The translations under genes were made by a program, and so were the position numbers. A stretch of DNA of 64,000 nt from Nitrospinia bacterium (lineage in GTDB: Bacteria; Nitrospinota; Nitrospinia; JACRGO01), in contig JAJDAS010000247.1 in assembly GCA_029261755.1 (NCBI GenBank), positions 1,616-65,615 of the forward strand, written 5' to 3'. The notes under the pieces are model-generated. The model had not been told where the DNA came from. It made no database searches and saw only the letters and a list, made by a program, of their open reading frames with translations. Shown here piece after piece: positions 13,549 to 53,921 of the stretch (position 1 is the first letter of the stretch; each line of letters begins with the position of its first letter).

Positions 13549-15720
13549 ATGGCTGAGAAAAAACAGGGACAATTTAAAAATCCGTCAGCAGAAGTCCGGG
13601 ACAAAGGGTTGGAAATCCTGAAGGAGCTTTTGGCTGACCTGGCGGAAAAGGACACGGACTCTCTGGATAAGGCCTTCGTTGCTAAGGCCATGCTCAGCTT
13701 TGAAAATCTAAAGGACAGCCTTTCCGGGGAAACCGACGAAGAGGTTGTAAACCTTGTGGCCATGTCGGCCAAGGTCTTTGAAGACCTCATGATGGACAAC
13801 CTTACCCCCTCCGATGAGCTGCTAGATCTCTCCAGGGCCTGCACGGGGTGGTTAAAGGATTTTCTGGAGGGTGGGTCCGGCGAAGGGTTTGAGAGCATTG
13901 AAAGCGGCTTGAAATCCCTTTGGGGTGAGGAGGAAGCTTCTCCCGTCCAGGAAGAAAAGGCCGAATCCGCGCCGAAACCGGCTCCTGAAAAAAAAACGGA
14001 GCCGGAAGAAGATCTTTCGGGCAGCTATCCCTTACCCATCCATTCAGAAGATGACGCCGTCATCTATGTGGAATTCATTTCGGAGACAACGGAGCATATC
14101 GACAACATTGAAAGCGGCATTTTGGAACTGGAGAAAAATCCCGAGAACATGGATCTCCTGAATTCCATCTTCCGCCACTTCCACAGCGTCAAGGGCGCCG
14201 CAGGATTCCTGGGCATCCTGGATGTGAGTAAGGTGAGCCACGAGACGGAAAACCTCCTGGATCTGGCCAGAAAAGGGATGCTTTATGTGGATCACCCTAT
14301 TGTGAACCTCCTGTTGAAATCCACCGACTGCCAGGTGAGGCTTCTGAGGCACATCGATTCCCGCATCCAACACCTGCTGGGCAAAATCCCGGAAAAAGAT
14401 ATTGAACCCTCCTACGACATTGTGGAATTGGTGGGTCAACTCCGAGGGGTTATCGCGGAGGCCAAGGCAAGGCCCGCTGCTCCCCGGGTAGAAAAACCTC
14501 CCACCGCGCCGGGAATAGCGCCCCCGGAAGAGAGAATAGAGCCGGGCGCCAGAAAGATCACCGCTGTGGCGGATGTGAAAGTCTCTACTGATAAGCTGGA
14601 CCTGCTGATGGAGATGGTGGGTGAGTTGGTGATCTCCCAGGCACTGGTGAGCCAGGATTCCAGCCTCCAGAATGAGCACAACGTCAACATACAGAAAAAC
14701 CTTGCCATCATGGGCAAGATTACTAAGAACCTCCAGGAGCAGGTCCTGGCCGTAAGGATGGTTCCCCTCCGCATGCTTTTTCAAAAGATGGCGCGGCTGG
14801 TGCGCGATCTGGGCGCAAAACAGAACAAAAAGATCAAATTTGAAATTTCCGGCGAGGATACGGAGATCGACAAAACGGTTATCGACGGAATCAACGATCC
14901 GCTTGTGCATCTCCTTCGGAACAGTGCGGACCATGGAATCGAATCTCAGGAAGAAAGAAAGGAAATGGGAAAGTCGGAAACGGCCCGGGTTTCACTAAAA
15001 GCATACAACCAAAGCGGCAATGTGGTGATCGAGGTGGTGGACGACGGCAAAGGGCTGGACCGGGATAAAATCAGGAAAAAGGCCATTGATAGGGGGTTGG
15101 TGAAAGAGGACAAACAGGTGACGGACCGGGAAATCTATGAGTTCATTCTCCAGGCCGGTTTTTCCACCGCAGACCGTATCACCGATGTGTCCGGCCGAGG
15201 TGTGGGCATGGACGTGGTGGTGCGAAATATCCAAAAGCTGAACGGGAAGCTGGAAATTGACAGCGAGAAGGGGAAGGGATCCACCTTTACCATTCGACTT
15301 CCCTTGACCATGGCCATCATCGACGGAATGGTGGTGCAAGTGGGTCAGCAGAGATATATCATCCCCATCGTTTCCATCAAGGAGTCGGTCCAGCCAACCC
15401 AAAAAGATATTACCAGCGTCACCGAGGGTGGCGAGGTGGTGGATGTGAGGGGCAAACTGATTCCCCTTATCCGTCTCAATAAACTCTTTCAGATACCGGA
15501 CAGTAAAACCGATCCCTGTGAAGCTTTATTCATGATAGTGGAATCCAACGGTAAAGAGAGAGGTTTGATGGTGGATAATTTGATCGGCCAGCATCAAGTG
15601 GTGATCAAAAATCTAGGGCCCCGGCTTCAAGGGGTGAAAGGAGTTTCCGGTGGAGCTATTTTAGGAGACGGAAGAGTTGGTTTGATTTTGGACGTGGAAG
15701 GGATTATCGAGAGCATCTAA
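13549..15720 (+). CDS. cheA: Chemotaxis histidine kinase CheA (with a ~170-aa acidic N-terminal extension)
   Basis: The Hpt motif [11 protein letters not shown] is followed by a dimerisation region, HATPase boxes (NSADHGIE; DDGKGLD; GRGVGMDVV) and a C-terminal CheW-like domain. No P2 domain is evident. Confidence 0.93.
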   Translation: MAEKKQGQFKNPSAEVRDKGLEILKELLADLAEKDTDSLDKAFVAKAMLSFENLKDSLSGETDEEVVNLVAMSAKVFEDLMMDNLTPSDELLDLSRACTGWLKDFLEGGSGEGFESIESGLKSLWGEEEASPVQEEKAESAPKPAPEKKTEPEEDLSGSYPLPIHSEDDAVIYVEFISETTEHIDNIESGILELEKNPENMDLLNSIFRHFHSVKGAAGFLGILDVSKVSHETENLLDLARKGMLYVDHPIVNLLLKSTDCQVRLLRHIDSRIQHLLGKIPEKDIEPSYDIVELVGQLRGVIAEAKARPAAPRVEKPPTAPGIAPPEERIEPGARKITAVADVKVSTDKLDLLMEMVGELVISQALVSQDSSLQNEHNVNIQKNLAIMGKITKNLQEQVLAVRMVPLRMLFQKMARLVRDLGAKQNKKIKFEISGEDTEIDKTVIDGINDPLVHLLRNSADHGIESQEERKEMGKSETARVSLKAYNQSGNVVIEVVDDGKGLDRDKIRKKAIDRGLVKEDKQVTDREIYEFILQAGFSTADRITDVSGRGVGMDVVVRNIQKLNGKLEIDSEKGKGSTFTIRLPLTMAIIDGMVVQVGQQRYIIPIVSIKESVQPTQKDITSVTEGGEVVDVRGKLIPLIRLNKLFQIPDSKTDPCEALFMIVESNGKERGLMVDNLIGQHQVVIKNLGPRLQGVKGVSGGAILGDGRVGLILDVEGIIESI

Positions 15721-16452: not shown

Positions 16453-16520
16453 CATGTGATTTGTTTTTTTTAGCAGTCAAGAAAAGTTCCATTTCCATTT
16501 TCATTTCGCGAGACGGAGAC

Positions 16521-18069
<1,549 letters not shown>

Positions 18070-22747: not shown

Positions 22748-23716
22748 TTACTTTCCCTTCAAGATCTGCTGCCTTGGGTGCGCCTTACAAATTACTTCTT
22801 TCAATCCGGAATCGGAGGCCTGGGTATAAATCTGAGTGGTGGCAATGCTGGAGTGGCCTAATAATCTTTGCACCTGCCGTATGTCCAGCCCGGCTTCCAG
22901 GAGATGCGTGGCTGTTGCATGTCGGAGCATGTGTGGAGTGATCCGGTTTTTCAGTCCAGCTTCGTCCCCGGCCATGCGGATAAGCTTCCTAATGAATTGA
23001 GTAGAGGCTGGCTGGTTCCTGGAGTTGATAAAAAGACTATCCGTGTCCGGCTTTCTAAGGTTTCGTCTTTTGATATAGGATTTCAGAAGAAGTTTAATTT
23101 CCTCATCGGGAATATAGACTTTTCTTTCCCTCACCCCTGTCCCTGCAATGAAGATGGAGCTCTCCTTCATGTTTATTTCCCGCATAGTAAGATCCACCAG
23201 TTCACCCACCCGGATGCCCGTGCTGAATAGAAGCTCCAAGACAACCAATGTGGTATGAACATTGAGATGGCCGGTATCCTCATGTCGGTTCCAAGTCCCT
23301 TGTCCATAGGCCGTATTTTGGGATTCTCCCATTCTTTTCCTGGTGTTCTGAATGAGGGCTCGAATTTCCTTTTTTGTAAGCCCTATCGGAACTTGTTGGG
23401 GAAGTGTAACTCTGGTATCCAGCCTATGGAAAGGATTCACTGCAATTATGTCACCCAGTTCCATCCATCGATAAAAAACCTTTAAGCTTGCCAATCGACG
23501 TTTCACACTTGTTTCCTTCAAATCACAGACATCGAAAAGATGCGCCAAATACTTCTGGAGGAGAGTCTTGTCGCACTTCTTGATGCTTACGTTCTTTCCC
23601 GCGAATAGCCGGAATTTTTGCAAATCGATGGAATATGCCTTGAGGCTGTGCCTCGAAAGGTTTTTGCCGTGTTGACAATGAGAAATAAACTGGGTAATTG
23701 CGTCTTGAAGTTTCAT
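22748..23716 (-). CDS. Tyrosine site-specific recombinase (XerC/XerD-integrase family)
   Basis: 322-aa ORF. The N-terminus has a core-binding domain (SLKAYSIDLQKF). The C-terminal catalytic boxes are TGIRVGEL and HMLRHATATHLLEAGLDIRQVQRLLGHSSIATTQIYTQ, giving the R..HxxR..H..Y pattern. Confidence 0.88.
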   Translation of the reverse strand: MKLQDAITQFISHCQHGKNLSRHSLKAYSIDLQKFRLFAGKNVSIKKCDKTLLQKYLAHLFDVCDLKETSVKRRLASLKVFYRWMELGDIIAVNPFHRLDTRVTLPQQVPIGLTKKEIRALIQNTRKRMGESQNTAYGQGTWNRHEDTGHLNVHTTLVVLELLFSTGIRVGELVDLTMREINMKESSIFIAGTGVRERKVYIPDEEIKLLLKSYIKRRNLRKPDTDSLFINSRNQPASTQFIRKLIRMAGDEAGLKNRITPHMLRHATATHLLEAGLDIRQVQRLLGHSSIATTQIYTQASDSGLKEVICKAHPRQQILKGK

Positions 23717-25523: not shown

Positions 25524-26669
25524 TTATTCTACCAAATTAAGTCTGACTTTTACATCTTGCACCTCATCCAAAGGGATGAGATCGTTTTTGATTTTCCGTG
25601 CAATCTCTTTTCCCTCTTTGATACTCATCTCGGAGGGCAATTCCACGTAAACTTCCAGGAAAGCCTTTCCTGAAAGGTAGTGGATCTGTAAATCAAAATG
25701 TTGGCCCAGGGGTTGGGATTTTTCAATGGTTTCCCTTACTTTGGCCTCCAACTGTCGACGGGTGAAATCGTAATGGATGCCAGGGCCGTCGTCTTCCGCG
25801 TCGATATGGACCATGGTTTGCCCCACATTTTTTACCTTGGACTGAAGCCCTTTTCTCACACTCTCGGCAATATTATGCCCTTCCGAGACGCTGATATAAG
25901 GCTGGACCTGGATATGGACATCCACCAGTATGTCTTTTCCGATTTTTCTTGTTTTCAGATCATGGAAGCTTACCACCTCATCCGAATTTAGAATTGTCTC
26001 CTCGATTTCTCTCCGAATATCTTTGGAGACTGAAGCGTCCATCAACTCCTGTACGCTTTCCCATGCCACATCAAAACCAACCTTGATGATAAAAAGAGCA
26101 ACGAGGGTTGCGGCAATAGGATCACAAATGCTGTAACCCGCCATGGCGGCTGCGATACCGAAAAGCGCCACAATGGAGGAGAGAGCATCGGTCCGATGGT
26201 GATATGCGTTGGCGATGATCACTTGGCTCTCTATGGCCTGACCCACGTTAGCAGTATAACGATAAAGAGCTTCCTTGATTCCAATGGAGATCAGGGCGCC
26301 TCCAATAGCCAGGTTGTTGGGGGTCTGCGCTGTGCCTTCCCGGATGATTTGTATGGCCTCGTTGATGAACTCGAATCCCACGCCGATCAAGATGATCCCG
26401 ATTACTGTTGCGCCGATGGCCTCTGCCCTACCGTGCCCGTAAGGATGGCATTCGTCGCTGGGTTTGTTGGAGATCTTGAGGCTAACCAGGGCCACCAGAT
26501 CGGTGATCAGGTCGGAAAGCGAATGCACGGCATCCGCTATCATGGCGGAACTTTTGCCAAGATAACCGGCTGCAAATTTGCAGATGGTAAGCAGGATATT
26601 CCCAGCTGCTCCTACCAAGGTAACCCTTACACCTGTCTTGTATGAAAAATCCGGCTGGGATATATCCAT
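25524..26669 (-). CDS. Cation diffusion facilitator (CDF) family metal efflux transporter with an extended C-terminus
   Basis: It has six hydrophobic segments and the metal-site motifs HSLSDLITD and HHRTDALSS. Two consecutive segments resembling the cytoplasmic dimerisation domain follow. Confidence 0.88.
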   Translation of the reverse strand: MDISQPDFSYKTGVRVTLVGAAGNILLTICKFAAGYLGKSSAMIADAVHSLSDLITDLVALVSLKISNKPSDECHPYGHGRAEAIGATVIGIILIGVGFEFINEAIQIIREGTAQTPNNLAIGGALISIGIKEALYRYTANVGQAIESQVIIANAYHHRTDALSSIVALFGIAAAMAGYSICDPIAATLVALFIIKVGFDVAWESVQELMDASVSKDIRREIEETILNSDEVVSFHDLKTRKIGKDILVDVHIQVQPYISVSEGHNIAESVRKGLQSKVKNVGQTMVHIDAEDDGPGIHYDFTRRQLEAKVRETIEKSQPLGQHFDLQIHYLSGKAFLEVYVELPSEMSIKEGKEIARKIKNDLIPLDEVQDVKVRLNLVE

Positions 26670-27416: not shown

Positions 27417-28382
27417 ATGAGTATTCTGATTGTTGACGATTCACTTAGCTTAAGGTTTTTGCTGGCCACTCTTTTAAAAAAAGCCGGCTACAAAGATTTA
27501 CTCCAGGCGGAGTCAGCGCCGGCGGCCTTTAAAATCCTTGGCATGGAGAACAACTCCTCAGCCTCTCCAGATATCGACCTCATCCTGCTGGATATCATGA
27601 TGCCCGAAATAAACGGCATCGAAGCATGTAAGCGAATTAAGGCCGTGGAGTCCTTGCAGGATATTCCCATTATTATGGTGACGGGCAAAGCGGACAACGA
27701 AAACCTGGAACTCTCCTTTGAAGCCGGTGCCATTGATTATGTGGTTAAGCCTTTCAATAAAACTGAACTTTTGGTACGAATGAGTTCGGTCCTGAAACTG
27801 AAACAGGAGATGGACCGTCGTAAAGAGGTCACGAAGCAGCTGGAGGTGGCGAATCGCAAACTGAAGCTCCTTTCTTCCATGGATGGTTTGACCGGTATTG
27901 CCAACCGCCGCCATTTTGACGAGACACTGGAAAAGGAATGGAGGCGCGCCCTTCGTGCTGAAAGTAAATTTTCATTGATCCTAATGGATGTGGATTCCTT
28001 CAAACCGTACAACGACCACTACGGCCATCAGGCCGGAGATGATTGCCTGAAGAAAGTGGCCCAGGCACTACAAGCCGAGGTCAAGCGTCCTGCAGATCTG
28101 GTCGCCCGCTATGGGGGGGAAGAATTCGTGGTTGTTTTGCCGGAGACAGACTCTATGCATGCGGGAATATTGGCGGAAAAACTGCGCGAACAAATTGAAT
28201 CCTTACAAATACCCCATGAAAAGTCCCAAACCGTGCCGGTAGTTACCTGCAGTCTGGGGGTCGCCACGTTGAAACCAACCCAGGATTTACAATCCAAATC
28301 CCTGGTTGAAGAGGCGGACAAGGCGCTTTATTTGGCCAAACGAGGGGGCCGCAATAGAGTTGTATCGGAGGGAGAGAAATAA
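27417..28382 (+). CDS. Response regulator-diguanylate cyclase (REC-GGDEF)
   Basis: The receiver (ILIVDDS, LLDIMMPEINGIE, VKPF) is followed by a coiled linker and a GGDEF domain with the active-site GGEEF (YGGEEFVVVLP). An RxxD-type context lies upstream. Confidence 0.92.
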   Translation: MSILIVDDSLSLRFLLATLLKKAGYKDLLQAESAPAAFKILGMENNSSASPDIDLILLDIMMPEINGIEACKRIKAVESLQDIPIIMVTGKADNENLELSFEAGAIDYVVKPFNKTELLVRMSSVLKLKQEMDRRKEVTKQLEVANRKLKLLSSMDGLTGIANRRHFDETLEKEWRRALRAESKFSLILMDVDSFKPYNDHYGHQAGDDCLKKVAQALQAEVKRPADLVARYGGEEFVVVLPETDSMHAGILAEKLREQIESLQIPHEKSQTVPVVTCSLGVATLKPTQDLQSKSLVEEADKALYLAKRGGRNRVVSEGEK

Positions 28383-32343: not shown

Positions 32344-33534
32344 ATGGTCCCTAATGCGATAATTACAAGATTGCTATCCAAACCGCTGAAACATCACTTA
32401 AAGCGCGGCAAAAGTATTTTGCTTCTAGGCCCCCGTCAAGTTGGTAAAACTACATTACTCAGGAATATTAAGTCAGATCTCCTGATAACTCTTTTACGTC
32501 CAACCATTAGGATCAGCTACGAAAAGGATCCCGAAAAACTTTTGCGGGAAATTAAAGGATTAGGCATAAAAAAGCCTCTGGTGATCGTTGATGAGATTCA
32601 AAAAGTTCCGGCCTTGCTGGATATTATTCAAGAGATTATCGATGAAAAAGAAGCCCAGTTTGTTTTAACAGGCTCTTCCGCCCGAAAACTAAAGAGGCAA
32701 AAAAGCGTTAATTTGCTGCCGGGAAGGGTTGTATCGTTGCGTTTGGATTCGCTTATTCTTGAAGAAATGAAAAAACCGGATTTGAACACATTGTTGTTTT
32801 ACGGTTCTTTGCCGGAAGTATTTCTTACTCAATCAAATAACGACAAAGAGATTGATCTTAAGACGTATGTGGAAACATACCTTGAAGAAGAGGTCCGTAT
32901 TGAGTCTTTAGTGAGAGAGCTTGCTCCCTTTGCAAGATTCATTGAGCTGGCTGGAATCGAATCCGGCAAAACGATTAACTATTTATCTATTTCTCAAGAG
33001 ATTGGCGTTGACGCCAAAACCATAACAAACTATTTTGAAATATTGTTTGACTGCTTAATCGCTGAAAGGGTGGACCCTTTAACCCATAGTCTCACAAGAA
33101 AAAAACTCATAAAGTCTAGCCGGTATCTTTTTTTCGATTTAGGAGTTCGCCGTTTGGCTGCTGAAGAAGGAACAAGAGTCACCCCTGAAAGAACGGGGGA
33201 GTTATTTGAACAATTTGTCGGGATTGAACTAATCAGGCTGCTTCGATTGCACAAATCGAGCGGAAAGCTTAAATTCTGGCGAGATCCGGATGGAGTAGAA
33301 ATTGATTGGGTTATAGATTATAAAAAAATATACGTTCCCATAGAGGTAAAATACTCAAACAAACCATCCCGAAAACATATAAAAAACCTAAAGACATTTA
33401 TGGCGGAGTATGAAAATGCCGGGGAAGGATTTATCGTTTGCCGATGTGAAAGAAAACAAAAGTTAGCGGATAATATAACGGCAATACCCTGGGATAAGTT
33501 ACATTTGATTTTGGATGTGTTAAAAGACGAGTAA
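32344..33534 (+). CDS. AAA+ ATPase with a DUF4143-type C-terminal domain
   Basis: 396-aa ORF with Walker A (LLGPRQVGKTTL) and Walker B (LVIVDEIQ), and a C-terminal region typical of the AAA_14/DUF4143 family. It is AT-richer than the housekeeping neighbours. Confidence 0.85.
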   Translation: MVPNAIITRLLSKPLKHHLKRGKSILLLGPRQVGKTTLLRNIKSDLLITLLRPTIRISYEKDPEKLLREIKGLGIKKPLVIVDEIQKVPALLDIIQEIIDEKEAQFVLTGSSARKLKRQKSVNLLPGRVVSLRLDSLILEEMKKPDLNTLLFYGSLPEVFLTQSNNDKEIDLKTYVETYLEEEVRIESLVRELAPFARFIELAGIESGKTINYLSISQEIGVDAKTITNYFEILFDCLIAERVDPLTHSLTRKKLIKSSRYLFFDLGVRRLAAEEGTRVTPERTGELFEQFVGIELIRLLRLHKSSGKLKFWRDPDGVEIDWVIDYKKIYVPIEVKYSNKPSRKHIKNLKTFMAEYENAGEGFIVCRCERKQKLADNITAIPWDKLHLILDVLKDE

Positions 33535-33951: not shown

Positions 33952-34038
33952 TGGTGCCGATGGGGAGAGTCGAACTCCCACAGGGTTGCCCCCACAGGAT
34001 TCTGAGTCCTGCGTGTCTACCAGTTCCACCACATCGGC
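33952..34038 (-). tRNA. tRNA-Leu (anticodon CAG)
   Basis: The reverse complement is GCCGATGTGGTGGAACTGGTAGACACGCAGGACTCAGAATCCTGTGGGGGCAACCCTGTGGGAGTTCGACTCTCCCCATCGGCACCA. The acceptor stem is GCCGATG/CATCGGC and the anticodon stem-loop is CAGGA-CTCAGAA-TCCTG. It has a long variable arm, the T-arm GGGAG-TTCGACT-CTCCC, and an encoded CCA. Confidence 0.95.
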
Positions 34039-40860: not shown

Positions 40861-41418
40861 ATGAAGAGAAAACTTAGAACAAAACCTGAATATAAAACAT
40901 GCCCGTTTATTGAGAATTCCTTGGCAGACTGTTACTGCTCGGACATGAAAAGCCAAAACATTAAACTTGCCCTGAATTTCTGCGGTGGAGATTATAAAAA
41001 ATGTCCCATTTATGTAAAGGCATCAAGAGAAGGGAAAAGAATACTTGTGGCGGAGGATGATGACATTATGAGCTCCGCCCTAAAGGCCATGCTGGAATTA
41101 GCGGGCCATAAAGTCATCACCGCTTCCAATGGCAGAATGGCCCTTGATATTATCCTGAAAAACGAAGGCCCTTCAAATCCGATTTCTCTCCTTATCACAG
41201 ACCTCGAAATGCCTTTGACTGATGGCATAGAACTCATTGAAAAAATAGGCGAACTGAAACAACATATTCCGATTGTGGTAATTACTGGCTACCTGGACGA
41301 ACAAAAGGAAAAAAAATTACTGGAAAACCGGGTGGAGGAAATCATTCTAAAGCCTTTTGTGATGAAAGCTGCCGTGGAAACAGCTAATAGGATTTTGGCC
41401 AAAGAATTGGAAGGTTAA
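40861..41418 (+). CDS. Response-regulator receiver with a Cys-rich N-terminal extension
   Basis: 185-aa ORF. Residues 1-55 carry five Cys (CPFIENSLADCYCSDMK...NFCGGDYKKCPIY). A canonical receiver follows (LVAEDDD, ITDLEMPLTDG, ITG, LKPF). RBS AGGAA is present. Confidence 0.8.
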   Translation: MKRKLRTKPEYKTCPFIENSLADCYCSDMKSQNIKLALNFCGGDYKKCPIYVKASREGKRILVAEDDDIMSSALKAMLELAGHKVITASNGRMALDIILKNEGPSNPISLLITDLEMPLTDGIELIEKIGELKQHIPIVVITGYLDEQKEKKLLENRVEEIILKPFVMKAAVETANRILAKELEG

Positions 41419-41434
41419 TAACAATATTTAAAAT

Positions 41435-43534
41435 ATGAAAAAAGTTCTTTTGATTGAGGATGAAATGATAGTCATTAAAACCCTTCGATTAGCCTTGGAG
41501 GAAGAAGGGTATAAAGTGATTTTCTCCGAATGCGGGGAAAAAGGACTTGCCAAGGCCCGTTCGGAAAGGCCGGATCTTATCCTTCTCGATATTATGCTTC
41601 CCAAAATGGATGGGTTCAAGGTTTGTGAGGCCCTGAAATCGGAAGATGAGTATAAAGCGATTCCCATTATCATGCTGACTGGTTTGGGAGACACGGAAAA
41701 TATAGTGAAAGGATTTTCCGCTGGAGCCAATGATTATGTTTCCAAACCCTTCCATTTAGTTGAACTCCTTGCACGGGTGAAAACCCACATTAGAATAAAA
41801 GAAACCCATGATATTTTAATGGAAAAAGAACGGGAAAAGTCCGCCCTTCTCGATGTCTCCCAGTCACTCTCCTCGGCAGAAGACCCTTGTGAAACTCTAT
41901 TTATGATTGTCTCCTCGGTTACCGGTGTCATTGAGTCCAAACGTTGTTCCATAGTTTATGCCCACACTACAGGCACTACGGGTTGGGTGATGGCGTCCAG
42001 CGATTCGAAGGAAGTCACGCAACTTGAGATAAATTGTAACAAATATCCTGAAATCCAAAAGGTCTTGGAAACAAGGGAACCCTTGGTGATAAATAATATT
42101 TTCCAAGAGCCGCTAATGGCGCCAGCCCTGGGGGTCTTGAAAATTTCAGGCGTCAAATCAATGATGGTTTTTCCCATAATGTTAAAAGATAGGGCCATCG
42201 GCGTCCTTATCCTCAAATCCCCGAAGAAAGAAGTTATGTTCTGTGGCCGCGAGATCAGGTTTTGCCTGGTAACGTCCAACTTGGCGGCCGGCCCGCTGAA
42301 CAATGCGTATCTGGTTGAAAAATTTCACCAGGAAAAGGAACGGGAAAAGGAAACCCGCAAAGCGGCAGAGGAACAACTCCGAAAATTATCCTTGGCCATA
42401 GAACAGAGCCCTAATATAGTGGTTATGACAGACACCAACGGGAATATTAAATATGTTAATCAAAAATTTACCGAAATAACCGGCTATACCTCTAAAGAAA
42501 TACTTGGCCAAAACCCGAGACTGTTAAAGTCAGGCAAAACACCCCCTAAGGAATATGGAAGAATGTGGAATACCATTAACTCGGGCAAGGAATGGAGGGG
42601 AGAATTCTATAACAAGAAAAAGAATGGAGGTTTTTTTTGGGAATCAGCATATATAGCGCCCATTAAGAACCCGGAAGGAAAAATCACCCATTTTGTTTCA
42701 GTCAAGGAGGATATTACCGAAAAAAAACTCGCCAAGGAAAGAGAAAAGCATCAAAAGGAACTTCTTGCCCATGCAAACAGATTAACCTCCATTGGGACCC
42801 TGACGGCCGGAATTTGCCACGAGATCAACAACCCCAATCACCTTGTCATGTTATGCGCCTCAATCATTGAAAACGAATGGATGCAAATTGACGAGTTCTT
42901 TAATTCGAGAAACGACGAAGAAAGTGGCTCATTACCCCAACCCGTTGTCAGGGCATTGACAAATTTTCCAAAGCTCACCAGGGATATTCAGACCGGGGCG
43001 GAAAGGATAGAAAGAATTGTTGCGGGCATGCGTGACTTTTCCCGGTTAGACCCAACCGCCAGTGGCCAAGAAATACAAGTCAAAGACTTAATTTTTTCCG
43101 CAAAAGACCTTCTTTGGAGTCTTATTAAAGAAAGCACCGATCATTTTAAAATTGATATTCCGGACCTGCCCGCCATAAAGGGGGATTCCCAAAAACTGGA
43201 ACAGGTTTTTGTCAATTTGATCACCAATGCCTGCCATTCCCTTACGGATGCAAAAAAGGCCATTGAAATAACCGGCGCCCATGATAAATCCCGAGGTGTG
43301 ATTATTCTCCAGTTCAGGGACGAGGGAAAGGGCATGGACTCCGAGACTTTGCGGAGAGTGATGGAACCCTTCTTTACCACTAAAACAGATTCCGGCGGAA
43401 CAGGGCTGGGTGTATCGATTTCTTTCGGTATTATTAAAGATCATGGAGGTTTAATGGAGTATCAGTCGGAACCGAGAAAAGGTACCGTAGTTATTATCAC
43501 CCTCCCCGTAAACTGTGCCAAATTGAGAAGTTAA
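41435..43534 (+). CDS. Hybrid REC-GAF-PAS histidine kinase
   Basis: It has an N-terminal receiver (LLIEDE, LLDIMLPKMDG, SKPF), a GAF-like region and a PAS domain (NIVVMTDTNGNIKYVNQKFTEITGY). The H-box is ICHEINNPNH and the HATPase boxes are NLITNACHS, DEGKGMD and GTGLGVSIS. Confidence 0.9.
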   Translation: MKKVLLIEDEMIVIKTLRLALEEEGYKVIFSECGEKGLAKARSERPDLILLDIMLPKMDGFKVCEALKSEDEYKAIPIIMLTGLGDTENIVKGFSAGANDYVSKPFHLVELLARVKTHIRIKETHDILMEKEREKSALLDVSQSLSSAEDPCETLFMIVSSVTGVIESKRCSIVYAHTTGTTGWVMASSDSKEVTQLEINCNKYPEIQKVLETREPLVINNIFQEPLMAPALGVLKISGVKSMMVFPIMLKDRAIGVLILKSPKKEVMFCGREIRFCLVTSNLAAGPLNNAYLVEKFHQEKEREKETRKAAEEQLRKLSLAIEQSPNIVVMTDTNGNIKYVNQKFTEITGYTSKEILGQNPRLLKSGKTPPKEYGRMWNTINSGKEWRGEFYNKKKNGGFFWESAYIAPIKNPEGKITHFVSVKEDITEKKLAKEREKHQKELLAHANRLTSIGTLTAGICHEINNPNHLVMLCASIIENEWMQIDEFFNSRNDEESGSLPQPVVRALTNFPKLTRDIQTGAERIERIVAGMRDFSRLDPTASGQEIQVKDLIFSAKDLLWSLIKESTDHFKIDIPDLPAIKGDSQKLEQVFVNLITNACHSLTDAKKAIEITGAHDKSRGVIILQFRDEGKGMDSETLRRVMEPFFTTKTDSGGTGLGVSISFGIIKDHGGLMEYQSEPRKGTVVIITLPVNCAKLRS

Positions 43535-43565
43535 AAAACTAAAAACAATAGGAGTGAGGAAGTAC

Positions 43566-44333
43566 ATGAGGAATTTATTGATCATTAACGAGAACCGTTC
43601 CATACAAATGCTTTTAAATAAAATGGTTTTATCAGAACTAGGCGATTTTTGCGTTACCGAGGCATCCTCCAGTGAAGAAGCTCTTGAAAAACTTCAAAAG
43701 CAAAAATTCAATGTTGTTATTTCCGCTAATGAAACCGGAAGTGTGGATGGGGCGAGCATCTTTAAATTAACGCGTGAATTACCCGAAAACAAAGACACCC
43801 CTTTCATTTTAATGACTTCATCCCAAAAAAATGAAACTTTAGCAAAACTGAAAAATGAAGGCATTGAGCATTATCTTGTAACTCCCTTCGATAAAAAACA
43901 ACTCTCCACCAAGATCAACCTGGCCTGTAACCCAATAAAACTACGGACCAGCGACCGGATCAACATACCGGGCGTCATAGCTAAGGTGCATATGGGAGAC
44001 CACTATGCGAAAGCCAAGGCCGTGAATATGAGTTCCGGAGGGATTCTTTGTGATTTAGATTATTCGCATGGATTCGGAACAAACCTTCTTAAAGAAACAG
44101 GTATTGCGGTGGCATTTCCCAAGGAATATTCCGATATCCGGACAAGGGACATATCGAGCAAGTTTTTGCGCTTAGAAGTTTTGCCCTGCAATAACCATCA
44201 TTCCAATAAACAGGTCCGCGCGAGTTGGCGGTTTGTAGATGTTTCCAATGCGACAAAGAAAATTTTCGAGTTTGTCTTTCAAAAGGCCAGGAAGGATTTC
44301 GATCTATTCCCTATAAAAGAAGACCAAGAGTGA
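43566..44333 (+). CDS. Pseudo-receiver-PilZ domain protein (putative c-di-GMP effector)
   Basis: The N-terminal receiver-like fold lacks the phospho-acceptor Asp (VVISANETG where D-x-x-M-P is expected) and the conserved Lys (TPF instead of KPF). The C-terminal PilZ motifs are RTSDR (RxxxR) and NMSSGG ([DN]hSxxG), at nt 43944-44042. RBS AGGAG lies 12 nt before ATG 43566. Confidence 0.8.
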   Translation: MRNLLIINENRSIQMLLNKMVLSELGDFCVTEASSSEEALEKLQKQKFNVVISANETGSVDGASIFKLTRELPENKDTPFILMTSSQKNETLAKLKNEGIEHYLVTPFDKKQLSTKINLACNPIKLRTSDRINIPGVIAKVHMGDHYAKAKAVNMSSGGILCDLDYSHGFGTNLLKETGIAVAFPKEYSDIRTRDISSKFLRLEVLPCNNHHSNKQVRASWRFVDVSNATKKIFEFVFQKARKDFDLFPIKEDQE

Positions 44334-44413
44334 ACGTACCAATTTAAGTTTTTGAAAAATTAAAATTTTCATTCCTTTTGTACCTGCTTTCTCTCTAAAC
44401 TTCATAAATGTAA

Positions 44414-44495
44414 TGTTGGAATACTGGAATACTGGAATAGTTGGGGAAATTCCATTATCAACATTCCAATTTTCCATCATTCCGGTATTCCAATG
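44414..44495. repeat. Inverted repeat built from GGAAT words at an 8-nt period
   Basis: The left arm is TGTTGGAATACTGGAATACTGGAATAGTTGG, with GGAAT at 44418, 44426 and 44434. The right arm is AACATTCCAATTTTCCATCATTCCGGTATTCCAATG. It lies between the PilZ gene and the first MCP gene. Confidence 0.7.
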
Positions 44496-44547
44496 TCTGA
44501 ATTAAGATGGCAAATAACCCATTTTTTTTAATTAGGAGAACAAGCCC

Positions 44548-46446
44548 ATGAATAAAATGCATTCAATAAAAGTAAGGACATACACACCCTATTTTATGCT
44601 CTTGTTTTTTCTCCTGCTACAATGCGCCATTTTTTACTTCCTGGTAACGGATATGAGCAAGAAATACGCCCAGGTGGATATGGCCGGGGCCTTGCGAAAG
44701 AGGGCAGTGGAGATTGTGGACATCCTGAACCGCCACATCATGAACGACATTGAAGAGCTTGAGAAAGTATTTCAGAAAAAGAGGGCGGAATATCCCGAGG
44801 TTATTAAATCTCTCAGAAGCGGTTCCCATAAGGTTGCCGCCATTACCGATCCGGCGGTCCTGGGAAAACTTGCCAAATTGAAAGAGCAATGGAACGTCAT
44901 GCAAAAAGAGCTGGATCATGCCATGGAGCAAGGCGATGTATTGGTGGCCAATAAAAAAGAGGTGGAGAAAGGCACCTTTCCCATGGTCGGCCTCTTTAAT
45001 GAGATGGTAAAAGACTTCGAAAAGTTGAACCGCGAGGGTAACGGGTACGAAAGGAACATCAACCTGGCGGGAAAGCAAAGGGCTCTTACTTTAAAGATGT
45101 CCTACCTCATGGAGCGGTATTTCACCTCTTACGAGGAAAAAGACACGATCAGGAATGAACTCATGGGAACTGTAACAGAGTTTGAAAAGGCCCTGGAAGG
45201 TCTACAATCCGGCTCCCGAGAACTTAACCTCAAGAAAGCAAGCGGACCGGTGGTGGCCAAACTGAATCTTGCGGAAAAAGAATGGAAGAAAAGGAAGGGT
45301 TTCCTGATTCCGGCTATAAATGCAAAAGACAACTTTTACAAGGGGATTGACGTCCTTATGAATGTTCGAGCCCCAGAGATTGTGGCCTTTGCTGATGACC
45401 TGACTAAAGCGGTAGCCAACGGCGCCAGGGAAGACGCCAAACGGGCTTTGGCGATGATGGCCTGCCTAATATTCTTATCCGTTGCCATCATAATAATTTC
45501 CATGTGGCTTCTCAATATCCATCTCCTCAAACCCCTCTTTCGGATCAGAGAGGTGATCGGAAATATGGCCAAGGGCGACCTGAGCCAAAAGACAGGGATC
45601 AAAATCTTCTTTTTGGGTGTGGACCTGAAAGACGAAGTGGAAGGCCTTGCGGATAGCGTGGATGATATGGGAAGGAACCTTGGTAATCTGATCCGCGATA
45701 TCACGGAATCAACGGACAGAATTGCTTCCACTTCCACCGAACTGGCCGCTTCTTCCGAACAAATGTCCGTTAACGCCGATAGCCAGGCATCCCATGCCTC
45801 CACGCTGACCACCTCCAGCGATGAAATGTCCAGTACCATCATGGACGTGGCAAAAAATTCAACCACAGCGGCCTCCGCCTCCAGGACCGCAAAGGAAAAG
45901 TCCCACGAAGGGAAGGATGTTATCGGGCAATCCCAGCGCGTTATCGCCACGCTAGCGCAGAATTCCAACAAAATAGGAGAAGTGATACACCTCATAGCTG
46001 ATATTGCCAACAAGACTGACCTCCTTGCCATTAACGCGGCCATTGAGGCGGCTAACGCGGGAGAGCAAGGAAAAGGTTTCGCCGTGGTGGCGGATGAGGT
46101 GCGCAAACTGGCGGAAAGGACCACCAAGGCCACCAACGAGATAACCGAAGTCATTACCGTAATTCAGGAAAACACCAAAGGAGCCATCGATTCCATGGAC
46201 CATGCGGGGACCTCTATGGAAATCATAACCAAACAAGTGGACGACGCCACCGGAATGATTGAACAGATCGCCACGGCCACCGAGGAACAATCTGCAACCA
46301 TAATAACCTTTTCCGAAAACATCCGCGTTATAACCGATTCAAGCCGGGAGGTTACCGGCGCCTCTTCGGAAACAGCCAGGGCGGCGGAGGATCTGAGCAG
46401 GCTTTCCTCGGAATTAAAGCAGATGATGGAAAGGTTTAAATTGTAG
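44548..46446 (+). CDS. Methyl-accepting chemotaxis protein with a PilJ/NarX-type periplasmic sensor
   Basis: It has two TM segments. The periplasmic region contains two P-box-like motifs ([12 protein letters not shown] and [17 protein letters not shown]). HAMP and the conserved MCP signalling hairpin follow ([43 protein letters not shown]). Confidence 0.93.
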
Positions 46447-46453
46447 GAGCTTT

Positions 46454-46915
46454 ATGGAAATTACTAAAGAAAACACACACAGCAACGAAACCGGCAAATT
46501 CGTGACCTTTAGCATTGAGGATGAATCCTTTGCCGTGAATATCCTGAATGTTCAGGAAATTAACCAGATGAATGAAATTACCATTACCAGGGTTCCCAAA
46601 TCCCCGAATTTTCTAAAAGGTGTCTTGAACCTCCGAGGGAAAATTGTTCCGGTAATTAACTTCAGGGTCCGCCTTGGTCTCCATGAACGGGAATGTGGCC
46701 ATGCTGCCAGAGTGATTATAGCAAAGCTGAAGGGAAACCTTTACGGCCTAATGGTGGACTCTATCTCGTCAGTTGTGGAGTTGGCCCAAAGCAATATTGA
46801 TCCACCGCCTTCTTCCTTGGAAGGAATTGACGCTGAATACATTGAGGGAATATCCAAAGAGGGTGGGAACCTTATGACGATTTTGAATCTTGGGAAAATA
46901 CTCTCTTTTACTTAA
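46454..46915 (+). CDS. cheW: Chemotaxis coupling protein CheW
   Basis: 153-aa single CheW-like domain (FVTFSIEDESFAVNILNVQEI...GVLNLRGKIVPVINFR). It starts 7 nt after the MCP stop. Confidence 0.92.
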   Translation: MEITKENTHSNETGKFVTFSIEDESFAVNILNVQEINQMNEITITRVPKSPNFLKGVLNLRGKIVPVINFRVRLGLHERECGHAARVIIAKLKGNLYGLMVDSISSVVELAQSNIDPPPSSLEGIDAEYIEGISKEGGNLMTILNLGKILSFT

Positions 46916-46939: not shown

Positions 46940-49750
46940 ATGGCTAAAAAAAGAAATAAAAAGACGAAACCCGCAATCGGCTCCGACCCTTTCAGCGGCC
47001 ACGAGGATATCATTGAGGGCTTTTTTTCTCCTTCTAGTCAACCGGAAATGGGAGAAGAGACCTCACAGCCCGCCGAGTCCGAGCCAGAGGTAAAGCCCAT
47101 ATCCACACAACCTGAACCCATGAAAAAGCCTGCCACGGAAAAAAAAGCTGAACAAAAAGAGGCAGACGCGGCTCCCGCCGTTATATATCCACAGGAGATC
47201 ATTGATGACTTCATCCAGGAATCTCAGGAAGGCCTGGACCAGCTCGATACGGACCTGGTTGCCTTGGAAGATAATCCCGGTGAGATGGACCTTTTAAACA
47301 AGGTCTTTAGAACCATGCATACCTTGAAAGGAGCGGCGGGATTCCTGGGCTTCAATTCCATTCAATCCACGGCCCACAAATCAGAAGACGTCCTGAATAG
47401 AATCAGGACCGGAGATATGGAGTCAAGCCCTGAAATTGTGGACGTTCTCCTGGAAGCCCTGGATGTGATCAAGCACCTGATGTCGGATCTGGCTAATTCC
47501 GGAAAAGAGTCAACAGATATTTTCCACGTTATGAATCGCTTAGAGAAGTTATTAAATGGCGCGGAGGGGAAATCATCAAAGCAGGAAATTCTTCTGATTG
47601 AAAAAGAAGATCAAGCGAGTTCGGTAGAACCGGAAAAGACGGGAAAAAAAGAATTGCCCGTGGCATCGCCCGCAGGTAAGTCCGCCTCCCTCATAAGACA
47701 GAACATCAGCACGATCCGAGTGGACGTAGAGCGTCTCGACAGCCTTATGAACCTGGCGGGTGAGTTGGTTCTCGCCAGGAACAGACAAGTCCAGCTTATC
47801 AAGGAGGTGGAACCCGGTTTTTCAGGAGAAGAGGAAAAATACACGGAATTGAACACAGCTGCCCACCAGCTGGATTTCATCACCACGGAGCTACAATTCG
47901 CTGTCATGAAGACCCGCATGCTCCCTGTATCCACTGTATTCAGCAAGTTTACCAGGGTAGTGCGGGATTTGAGCCGCTCCCTGGGAAAAGAAGTGGAATT
48001 GGTTATAGAAGGGGAAACAACGGAGTTGGACAAAAACGTTATAGAGGAAATTGGAGACCCCATGGTTCATCTTATTAGAAACGCCGTGGACCATGGAATA
48101 GAAAAACCGGAAGACCGCAAACAAAAGGGAAAAAATCCAAAGGGCACGGTGAAACTCTCCGCCTATTACGAGGGCAGCTATGTGATCATCGAGATCAAAG
48201 ATGACGGCAAGGGAATGGACCCGGAAAAACTGAAGGAAAAAGCCGTGGAAAAAGGGATGTTCACCGCCGAAGAGGTCTATTCCATGAGCCGGAACGAGGC
48301 ATTCAATCTTGTTTTCGCGGCGGGCTTTAGTACTGCTGAAGAGGTGAGCGACGTATCCGGCCGAGGTGTGGGAATGGATGTGGTGTGCTCCAATATTGAA
48401 AAGCTCAAGGGGATTATCGAGCTGGATTCATCGCCCGGACATGGCAGCTTGGTCAAGATCAAAATCCCCCTTACCCTGGCCATCCTCCAAACCCTTTTAT
48501 GTAAAGTCGGTGGCGAACGTTACGCCATTCCCCTGGATGCGGTTAAAGAAACGGTTCGTGTGCCGGCCTCCGAACTCCGGGCAGTAAGGGGGAAAAAGGT
48601 GATAAAGCTTCGAGATGAAATCCTTCCCCTCGTCTTTTTGCATGAAGTGTTGGATCTGGAAGCAGAAGACAGCGACGAAATTTGCGTGGTTGTGGTGCAG
48701 CATGGAATGCAGAGACTGGGCTGCGTGGTGCAAGAAACCATTGGACAAGAGGAGGTTGTCATTAAGTCTCTGGATGTTCTGAAAGATATGTGCGCAGGGA
48801 AATTTTTCTCAGGCGCAGCCATCCTTGGGGATGGAATCATTACCCTGATCCTTGACGTCTCTGAATTGATGCGTTTTGGCCACACGGCCGGACTTCAGGG
48901 GGAAGGGGAACTGGAAAAAGAAGAGGAACAAAGGAAAGAAGATGTCCTGAGTGTATTGCTGGTGGATGACGGTGCTCCGGAACAGTACGCCCTTCCGATA
49001 AAATCCATTAACAACATAGAAAATATAGCATCAAACGACATCGAATCCGTAGGCGGAAGAAAAGTGGTCAGGTACGAAGGAGAGGTGCTCCCCATCATCC
49101 ATTTATACGATATTACCAGCTTCCCCCCCGCCAGGCAGGAACCCGACATTTACCTGGTCATTTCAAAAGTGAACGGGGACACGGCAGGGCTGGCCGTTAA
49201 CAAGCTAAGGGGTATGAAGGAAATCAACAGGAGCGAGATGGATGACTGTTTTAGCGCCTCCGGTGTGGCCTACAGCGCGGTACTGGACAACCGGGTTACC
49301 CTCATCCTCAAAGAGGACGCGGTAATCAAACGAACCCTGGACGAAAGCCCGGTGCATCAGGGCACTCCTGCCCTACCAACAAAACACGGCAGGATATTGG
49401 TAGTGGACGATTCACCGGTGGCCAGGGAAACCATAAAAAAACAACTGCTTGAGGATGGTTTTGACGTTATTTTGGCAGTGGACGGAAAGGACGCCATGGA
49501 TAAATTGTCAGATATCGACATGGTTATAACCGATCTGGAAATGCCGGGGATGAACGGTTACGAACTTACTCGCGCCATTAAAGCCGGCTACCACGATCTC
49601 CCTGTCCTCATGGTTACCAGTAGGGACGGAGAAGAGGATCGACTGGAGGGACTTAAGGCAGGCGTCGACGACTATCAGGCAAAGCTGGACAGCCACAGGT
49701 TGCTCAGTTCAGTTAGACGGCATATTAAGAAATCTACTGTATGGCTCTAA
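46940..49750 (+). CDS. cheA: Hybrid CheA kinase: Hpt-dimerisation-HATPase-CheW-CheW-REC
   Basis: It has the Hpt motif [12 protein letters not shown] and HATPase boxes ([24 protein letters not shown]). Two successive CheW-like domains follow ([14 protein letters not shown]...; [15 protein letters not shown]...). The C-terminal receiver has [19 protein letters not shown] and VTS. The N-terminal ~90 aa is low-complexity. Confidence 0.93.
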
Positions 49751-53516: not shown

Positions 53517-53921
53517 ATGGCAAAAATATTAATAGCGGAAGACGACACAATTATTCAAAAACTGGTTTCATTGAACGTGGAGAAAATGGGGCATATCGCT
53601 TTTATAAGCCCCAACGGAAAACATGCTTATGAGGCTTTGAAGGCAAATCCGGAGTTCGAAATCCTCATTACAGATATCATGATGCCGGAAATGAATGGAG
53701 AGGATCTTATTAAAACTTTACGGGGGAATTCGGCCTTTCAGGGCCTGCCCATAATCATTATGTCCGCTATTGTGGGATATAAAGATATCAAAAACCTTTT
53801 GGAGCTTGGAGCAACCCGCTTCCAGCCCAAACCTATAAATATGCCTCAGTTGAAGAAAAATATTGAGGAGTGCATGCTCGAAAAAAAACTGAGTGCGAAA
53901 AAAGAAGCCAAGGGCAAATAA
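53517..53921 (+). CDS. Single-domain response regulator (CheY-like)
   Basis: 134-aa ORF with ILIAEDD, ITDIMMPEMNGED, IMSA and PKP. A strong RBS, AAGGAG, lies upstream. Confidence 0.88.
   Translation: MAKILIAEDDTIIQKLVSLNVEKMGHIAFISPNGKHAYEALKANPEFEILITDIMMPEMNGEDLIKTLRGNSAFQGLPIIIMSAIVGYKDIKNLLELGATRFQPKPINMPQLKKNIEECMLEKKLSAKKEAKGK

Follow-up and report, generated by a model that had tools for sequence, protein, structure and literature searches.

The window analysed here is a 64,000-nucleotide stretch from a Nitrospinia bacterium (assembly GCA_029261755.1, contig JAJDAS010000247.1, positions 1,616 to 65,615 of the forward strand), and all coordinates below refer to it. On its + strand at 43566-44333, at the boundary of a chemosensory (che) gene cluster, lies a gene for a 255-aa protein in which a CheY-like receiver that has lost its phosphorylation residues, a pseudo-receiver, is followed by a PilZ domain with a predicted site for the second messenger cyclic di-GMP (c-di-GMP). 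The gene is called from its open reading frame (ORF), its translation and homologues that match over the full length: the ORF is intact, with an ATG at 43566, 255 codons and a TGA stop ending at 44333, and is preceded by a good ribosome-binding site read from the sequence (43550-43559, + strand; AGGAG at 43550-43554 and GAGG at 43556-43559). The identical 255-aa protein occurs as a singleton in the protein collection (P0001), and with at most 42% identity to any other member, the target protein is a divergent representative of the family described below. Domain coordinates were taken from Pfam, from alignments and from an AlphaFold2 model of the 255-aa protein.

The two halves of the protein

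The N-terminal domain (aa 1-120; 43566-43925, + strand) has the (beta-alpha)5 fold of a CheY-like receiver: Pfam assigns Response_reg (PF00072) to residues 5-117 (E=6e-13, 49.3 bits, cutoff 30.2), the closest solved relatives in an HMMER search against Protein Data Bank (PDB) chains are CheY proteins (E about 1e-12), and the best Foldseek match of the full model is V. cholerae CheY4 (4h60; TM 0.91, root-mean-square deviation 1.5 A). Alignment to E. coli CheY, together with the HMMER alignments to CheY chains in PDB, places N8 and E9 at D12 and D13, A54 (codon at 43725-43727, + strand) at the phospho-acceptor D57, and T106 at K109, whilst T84 and Y103, the equivalents of CheY T87 and Y106, are retained. 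The catalytic quintet of DD, D, T/S and K is consequently read as N8, E9, A54, T84 and T106, of which E9 and T84 are the only compatible residues, and the three lesions reported by an earlier sequence-only reading of this DNA (NE for the acidic pair, Ala in VVISANETG, and TPF for KPF) are all present as N8-E9, A54 and T106-P-F. The alignment of the target with E. coli CheY also included five canonical receivers that the window encodes; all five have the canonical acidic pair, the Asp and the Ser/Thr, and four have KP at the Lys position, while in the C-terminal receiver of the CheA protein the Lys is present, with an alignment gap directly after it. An intact but shifted acceptor, which the sequence-only reading had named among the observations that would overturn its claim, was looked for in these alignments, and no displaced Asp was found near A54; the sole acidic residue nearby, E56 at D+2, was rejected as a substitute acceptor, being replaced by Lys in the closest homologue, P0002. 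The protein also falls outside the definition of CheY, having no acceptor Asp and two domains instead of one, and it scores 41.3 bits on the NCBIfam CheY model against a cutoff of 189. Judged from the CheY alignment, and from the lack of a full quintet in any of 138 relatives, the domain is a true pseudo-receiver for which canonical phosphorylation can be ruled out. By its residues it belongs to the aspartate-less type, in the nomenclature of a recent review that defined this pseudo-receiver subtype (PMC12632262).

Downstream of the receiver, the protein continues through an interdomain linker (aa 121-137; 43926-43976, + strand), delimited by the AlphaFold model and by family conservation, into a PilZ domain (aa 138-246; 43977-44303, + strand) recognised by Pfam, by the model and by hhalign. 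Both PilZ motifs named in the sequence-only reading, RTSDR and NMSSGG, can be read directly in this C-terminal half, the former as R127-TSD-R131 (43944-43958) and the latter as N154-MSSG-G159 (N154xS156xxG159 at 44025-44042). Residues 121-255 searched alone have PilZ as their sole Pfam match (E=0.068, profile positions 3-101 of 102), and hhalign places the C-terminal profile of the family on residues 112-235 of E. coli YcgR with both motifs in register, the statistics being weak (E=0.0032, probability 10%) when the target enters as a single sequence. The AlphaFold2 model built on a deep family alignment (predicted local distance difference test, pLDDT, 94.9; predicted TM score 0.86) supersedes an earlier run on a 2-sequence alignment in which the C-terminal half was poor (pLDDT 50-60). 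It comprises the (beta-alpha)5 receiver at 1-120, a linker at 121-137 that holds RxxxR and has no regular secondary structure, and six main strands, predicted to form a barrel, at 138-143, 146-155, 159-165, 178-183, 196-206 and 216-225 followed by a long C-terminal helix at 228-246, at pLDDT of about 85-98. N154 closes strand 2, S156 sits in the beta2-beta3 turn and G159 begins strand 3, so that the modelled placement of the motif is the canonical PilZ layout. A match of the C-terminal half to Epac in the PDB sequence search (E=0.089) was set aside as spurious.

A family of pseudo-receiver-PilZ proteins

A word-index search for homologues found just 2-4 relatives, and the family became visible only when 1.84 billion cluster representatives were searched exhaustively with HMMER, the target and its one word-index homologue serving as the query. 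At least 150 clusters at 50% identity match the full architecture, 120 of them at E<=1e-30, and the best 150 matches are nearly all about 245-260 aa long and aligned across both domains. The recurrence of a degenerate receiver with intact PilZ motifs in at least 150 clusters takes the pattern far beyond chance. In an alignment of 138 members, from which the residue counts are taken, the most conserved columns are those of the two PilZ motifs: R127 and R131 (137/138 each), N154 (136/138), G159 (128/138) and S156 (127/138), with both motifs intact in 118 members. Such near-invariance across at least 138 diverged relatives argues for purifying selection specifically on the ligand site. Pfam finds Response_reg in 131 of the 138 and PilZ at E<=0.01 in 68 (best 1.7e-7), and P0002 carries a precomputed PilZ match. 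Family Pfam matches, motif invariance, model topology and the hhalign alignment to YcgR make the PilZ assignment of the target's C-terminal half secure as a prediction from sequence and model, and c-di-GMP binding by the protein is strongly predicted.

Across the same alignment, the receiver is consistently degenerate. The acidic pair is mostly H-E (H in 102 members, E or D in 91), the acceptor position is most often G (50), A (30) or S (24), with D in no more than 9, a Lys is found at the K109 position in none of the 138 and a full catalytic quintet likewise in none, whilst T or S is kept at the T87 position in 100 and the Y106 position is variable (Y in 40, V in 24, F in 21 and I in 21). The polar residues that the family conserves, H8, S10, R14, Y20, E24 and D27, are grouped on helix alpha1 and the loops of the active site; conservation of helix alpha4 is poor.

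Members with a named source come from Planctomycetota and Thermodesulfobacteriota metagenome-assembled genomes (MAGs), and the family is widespread in environmental phyla. The UvrA encoded in the target window is closest to Nitrospinota UvrA, sharing 79-80% identity with UvrA of Nitrospinae/Nitrospinota MAGs, so that the host is probably an uncultured bacterium in, or related to, that phylum. Source annotations call family members just 'response regulator' or 'CheY-like chemotaxis protein', no NCBIfam model is devoted to the family, and censuses of c-di-GMP receptors probably undercount it because the PilZ half mostly escapes Pfam. No family relative was found in a scan of genome contigs with the 2-sequence alignment or in the plasmid collection, and a scan of metagenome contigs returned receiver-domain matches only; one ORF of 227 aa from that scan (L027) was considered and is not a family member.

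Two members carry a further domain. In P0075 (420 aa) and P0116 (418 aa), which are 37% identical over their full length, a histidine phosphotransfer (Hpt) domain at the N-terminus precedes the degenerate receiver-PilZ module seen in the rest of the family, and a tether rich in Pro and Ala connects the two. The fused Hpt has the CheA-P1 signature (VFRQAHTLKGNAGFLG; motif AHTLKGNA) with its phospho-His intact, matches CheA N-termini only in NCBIfam, and in P0075 shares 43% identity (E=3e-28) with P1 of the CheA-REC protein whose gene lies 2.6 kb downstream of the target gene. These proteins thus tether an Hpt to a receiver that is unable to accept phosphate. Domain fusion is a classic, though not conclusive, sign that the separate homologues interact, and receivers dock Hpt domains, as well as the dimerisation and histidine phosphotransfer (DHp) domains of kinases, through the alpha1/active-site face. 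The sequence-only reading had suggested that the protein docks on the chemosensory array or on CheA by mimicking CheY. The CheA part of that suggestion gains from the Hpt fusions, which point to P1, rather than to P2 or the tips of methyl-accepting chemotaxis proteins (MCPs), as the candidate dock; P2 and the MCP tips are not indicated, and linkage to chemotaxis or flagellar genes is limited to three of eleven family contexts.

Genes around the target and around its relatives

The + strand order leading to the target gene is a PAS histidine kinase, a REC-PAS-sigma54 activator, a 355-bp gap, a Cys-rich REC protein (40861-41418), a 16-bp gap and a REC-GAF-PAS-HisKA-HATPase kinase (41435-43534, from Pfam) whose stop lies 31 bp ahead of the target ATG. 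From their spacing, the kinase and target genes probably belong to one transcription unit. The Cys-rich protein combines a receiver that is canonical by Pfam and alignment with an N-terminal extension of about 55 aa, which holds six Cys (CPF...C.C...C...C), has no Pfam match, and may be a metal- or redox-sensing module.

A 214-bp spacer (44334-44547) follows the target gene. Sequence reading reveals within it a set of TGGAATA(C) direct and inverted repeats (44409-44494), comprising three direct copies at 8-nt spacing (44417-44439) and inverted TATTCCA/ATTCCA copies 25-55 nt downstream, with one arm pair of 22 nt that is 86% complementary; on this pattern the repeats may be a regulator-binding site or operator of the che cluster. 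The spacer holds no + strand terminator-like site, promoter and terminator scans gave background levels, and a search for sigma-54 promoters gave matches no more frequent than chance, none of them upstream of the target or of the MCP gene.

Beyond the spacer, still on the + strand, come a PilJ-type MCP (44548-46446; Pfam PilJ, HAMP and MCPsignal), CheW (46454-46915), the CheA-REC protein (46940-49750), two further MCPs and a canonical single-domain CheY-like receiver (53517-53921; Pfam and alignment), which, by its residues, is probably the true phospho-acceptor of the cluster. Pfam resolves CheA-REC into an Hpt/P1 domain (about aa 82-182), a dimerisation domain, an HATPase, two CheW domains and a REC domain, with no match to P2; ahead of P1 lie about 80 N-terminal residues of low complexity, rich in Lys/Pro/Glu. 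Neither CheB nor CheR was found among the genes of the cluster at 44.5-54 kb, and no flagellar or pilus gene in the 64-kb window. The hybrid kinase upstream and the MCP-CheW-CheA core downstream are as the sequence-only reading had described them, whereas its placement of the gene inside the che operon is not upheld: at 31 bp from the kinase gene and 214 bp from the MCP gene, the target lies at the boundary of the che cluster, with tighter spacing to the upstream kinase than to the che genes. The diguanylate cyclase that it had listed at 27417-28382 (+ strand) is likewise present, by Pfam and sequence a REC-GGDEF protein whose receiver is intact and which carries GGEEF and an RxxD I-site; lying 15 kb from the target, it is a plausible source of c-di-GMP with no specific link to it.

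Elsewhere in the window, a second, classical che set is encoded on the + strand, separate from the cluster at 44.5-54 kb (CheA 13549-15720, CheD 16461-17054 and CheB 17020-18069). A tyrosine recombinase (22748-23716, - strand), an AAA_14/DUF4143 ATPase (32344-33534, + strand) and a tRNA-Leu (33952-34038, - strand) lie in or near a stretch at 32-36 kb where G+C is 0.41 compared with about 0.47 elsewhere in the window, and this stretch may be an integrated element. The best specific NCBIfam matches of a cation diffusion facilitator (CDF) transporter at 25524-26669 (- strand) are MamB (E=2e-70) and MamM (E=2e-61), with scores of 237 and 208 bits that are both under the 350-bit cutoffs of these magnetosome models; on those scores the product is probably a generic CDF protein.

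Eleven family contexts, the target window included, were compared, and the counts drawn from them represent this set rather than a systematic survey of genome context or taxonomy. Chemotaxis or flagellar genes occur in three of the eleven, and che linkage is not a property of the family. The clearest neighbourhood combining c-di-GMP and chemotaxis is that of P0004 (GCA_054034195.1), where a gene for a REC-HD-GYP c-di-GMP phosphodiesterase (L033 1166-3694) lies immediately upstream in the same orientation, at a distance of 63 bp, and is itself preceded by a divergent cheR; P0143 is flanked by divergent flgF, flgG, flgA and flgH and has three kinase genes downstream. In eight contexts the neighbours are unrelated genes: a tetratricopeptide-repeat protein and an aminopeptidase; a TRAP transporter; a GDP-mannose dehydratase-like fragment; Sua5 and RpiB (in a Planctomycetota MAG); purE and purC; an isocitrate-lyase-like gene, with RT-Cas1 farther downstream; ligA (in a Thermodesulfobacteriota MAG); and PBP5 with an MFS transporter. 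In a further context, P0021 adjoins a divergently transcribed gene for a REC protein. About 2 kb downstream of P0012, at L041 10893-13994, is a gene for a 918-aa fusion of Cas6, reverse transcriptase and Cas1, followed by cas2.

A predicted c-di-GMP switch and its possible partners

On the combined evidence of sequence, model and analogy, the target protein would be a soluble pseudo-receiver adaptor switched by c-di-GMP at its predicted site, a reading to which we give a probability of roughly 0.6. In YcgR and PlzD (VCA0042), c-di-GMP clamps the interdomain linker that bears RxxxR. In the target, the RxxxR half of the predicted site lies in the linker after receiver helix alpha5, and c-di-GMP would be held by the arginines of the linker on one side and by the NxSxxG turn of the barrel on the other, which would clamp the linker and reset the orientation of receiver to barrel in the manner of those two proteins. 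By analogy with the Cle proteins (PMC5677366), nucleotide binding, in place of phosphorylation, could then expose or hide a protein-binding surface on the receiver. The likeliest class of partner would be a phosphotransfer component of the kind that receivers usually meet, with a CheA-type P1/Hpt domain as the best candidate; at this locus that would be P1 of the CheA-REC encoded next door. Gated by c-di-GMP and closed to phosphorylation, the protein would then imitate CheY. A more specific version, which we advance tentatively and consider rather unlikely, is that of a decoy: when loaded with, or freed of, c-di-GMP, the protein would dock on a CheA-type P1 (Hpt) domain without taking its phosphate, and so block or sequester phosphotransfer.

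It is worth setting out what weighs against the adaptor and its proposed partner. Pfam does not report PilZ (PF07238) on the full-length target, and its PilZ score of 14.0 bits is under the gathering cutoff of 22.5, so that assignment by profile search, on which the sequence-only reading had staked its claim, fails for the single sequence and succeeds through the relatives. The comparison of an AlphaFold model with CheY and PilZ that it had proposed bears out the receiver by fold and gives a predicted PilZ topology for the C-terminal half, the top 50 Foldseek matches of the full model being receivers throughout; the C-terminal profile of the family, moreover, matched nothing among PDB sequences. 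At several of the conserved polar positions the target differs from what most of the family has (H8N, R14Q, D49N, R124I, W208C and P214N). Most members are orphans among housekeeping genes, which argues that a che-specific role is not general; the Hpt fusions are just two of about 150 representatives and probably stem from a single fusion event; and the conserved alpha1/active-site face could instead be an intramolecular interface with PilZ.

Several of these points return in the competing explanations. The deviations from consensus and the sub-threshold Pfam score would both be expected of a response regulator that has decayed, has lost c-di-GMP binding in its PilZ-like tail, and persists as a constitutive scaffold or has no function, and some PilZ-fold proteins, such as PlpA, do not bind the nucleotide (PMC8316039). 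We regard this as highly improbable, since both motifs are intact in the target and nearly invariant in at least 138 diverged relatives, and the ORF and its ribosome-binding site are well preserved. A stronger competitor, though still an unlikely one, is an effector that binds the motor as Cle or YcgR proteins do: with c-di-GMP bound, the protein would use its CheY-like domain to engage the flagellar switch or stator (FliM, FliG or MotA) or a type IV pilus ATPase, tuning motility directly rather than via CheA. The closeness of the receiver to CheY in sequence and fold, the retained equivalents of T87 and Y106, the flagellar genes beside P0143 and the PilJ-type MCP next door are all compatible with this role, and Cle proteins (PMC5677366) and, from established knowledge, YcgR provide the precedent. 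Yet on the alpha4-beta5-alpha5 face, by which CheY and Cle meet FliM, alpha4 is poorly conserved in the family, the Y106 position varies, and motility genes are missing from most contexts and from the window itself.

Spacing within the locus lends itself to another account, in which the protein is an accessory subunit of the upstream Cys-rich REC protein and REC-GAF-PAS kinase, a decoy receiver on the kinase DHp domain that would make its output c-di-GMP-dependent, with the che cluster a mere neighbour. The gaps of 16 and 31 bp that join these three genes, compared with 214 bp to the MCP gene, fit such a unit, as do the three kinase genes that follow P0143, the REC-HD-GYP phosphodiesterase gene upstream of P0004, and the fact that the conserved alpha1/active-site face is also the face that docks on DHp; the pseudo-receiver of ShkA, which controls its own kinase through c-di-GMP (PMC12632262), is a precedent. 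Kinase adjacency, however, is seen in only two of the eleven contexts, fusions were found to CheA-P1-type Hpt only and none to HisKA kinases, and no + strand terminator-like site separates the target from the MCP gene, and we rate this account somewhat below that of a motor effector.

The c-di-GMP-switched adaptor has parallels in several characterised systems, each of which differs in a defining feature. The Cle proteins of Caulobacter are CheY-like proteins activated by c-di-GMP on a C-terminal Arg-rich extension, independently of phosphorylation, with cleA in a che cluster (PMC5677366). CleA-E of Caulobacter crescentus and the target share a CheY-like receiver with an Arg-rich c-di-GMP element directly after alpha5 (predicted in the target), and just as cleA adjoins canonical CheY paralogues in a chemotaxis cluster, the target cluster has the canonical receiver at 53517-53921. 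Cle proteins, however, have a short Arg-rich peptide and no PilZ domain, and keep the acceptor Asp though it is dispensable, whereas in the target family a complete PilZ barrel is predicted and the Asp, the Lys and the acidic pair are lost; the Cle motif [Y/F]xGPx[R/K]R (PMC10333796) is absent from the target sequence, whose C-terminal extension is a 135-aa PilZ domain; and the target of Cle is FliM, whereas the only clue to a partner in the present family is the CheA-P1-type Hpt. By sequence, the protein is a functional analogue of the Cle family and not a member of it.

With YcgR, PlzD and PP4397 (PilZN-PilZ) the target shares its domain order, in which an N-terminal partner-binding domain (putative in the target) leads through a linker with RxxxR to a PilZ domain, modelled as a barrel in the target. 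It lies outside the YcgR/PlzD family by its N-terminal domain, which is an alpha/beta receiver without sign of motor binding instead of the PilZN (YcgR_N) beta-barrel. PilZ proteins of the MapZ and PlzC type act, to our knowledge, on CheR or other components and not on CheA P1. MapZ with CheR1 in P. aeruginosa (PMC6370697) and PlzC in V. cholerae (PMC12799141) feed the c-di-GMP level into chemosensory pathways, as is proposed here, but unlike the target they have no receiver domain. PixA of Myxococcus xanthus, compared by its published description, also pairs PilZ with a receiver; its PilZ domain is N-terminal, and its receiver keeps all phosphorylation residues (Asp180), with genetics suggesting that it is phosphorylated (PMC8316039), whilst the target has no acceptor Asp. 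ShkA (PMC12632262, PMC10333796) resembles the proposed target in having a pseudo-receiver whose state is set by c-di-GMP instead of phosphorylation and which acts on phosphotransfer, but there the nucleotide sits on the pseudo-receiver itself, within a hybrid kinase, whereas the target is a stand-alone protein with its predicted site on a separate PilZ domain.

PilZ fusions, pseudo-receivers and c-di-GMP-regulated CheY-like proteins are each known already. In the searchable literature no description was found of a pseudo-receiver-PilZ family or of Hpt-pseudo-receiver-PilZ fusions, allowing that an earlier census may list the bare architecture, nor of a c-di-GMP route onto chemosensory phosphotransfer through a CheA-P1-type Hpt, and recent reviews of pseudo-receivers (PMC12632262) and of c-di-GMP receptor classes (PMC10333796) do not include the family. 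What switches a pseudo-receiver in place of phosphorylation is recognised as an open problem (PMC12632262), for which the family offers a clear and testable answer, a near-invariant predicted c-di-GMP site being joined to a receiver without a full active site in 138 of 138 members. The CheA-P1-type Hpt fusions, in turn, suggest a route by which c-di-GMP could act on chemosensory phosphotransfer. Should the decoy prove correct, a second messenger would directly control a chemosensory kinase at its phosphotransfer domain, and the Hpt-pseudo-receiver-PilZ fusions would be self-contained versions of the same switch.

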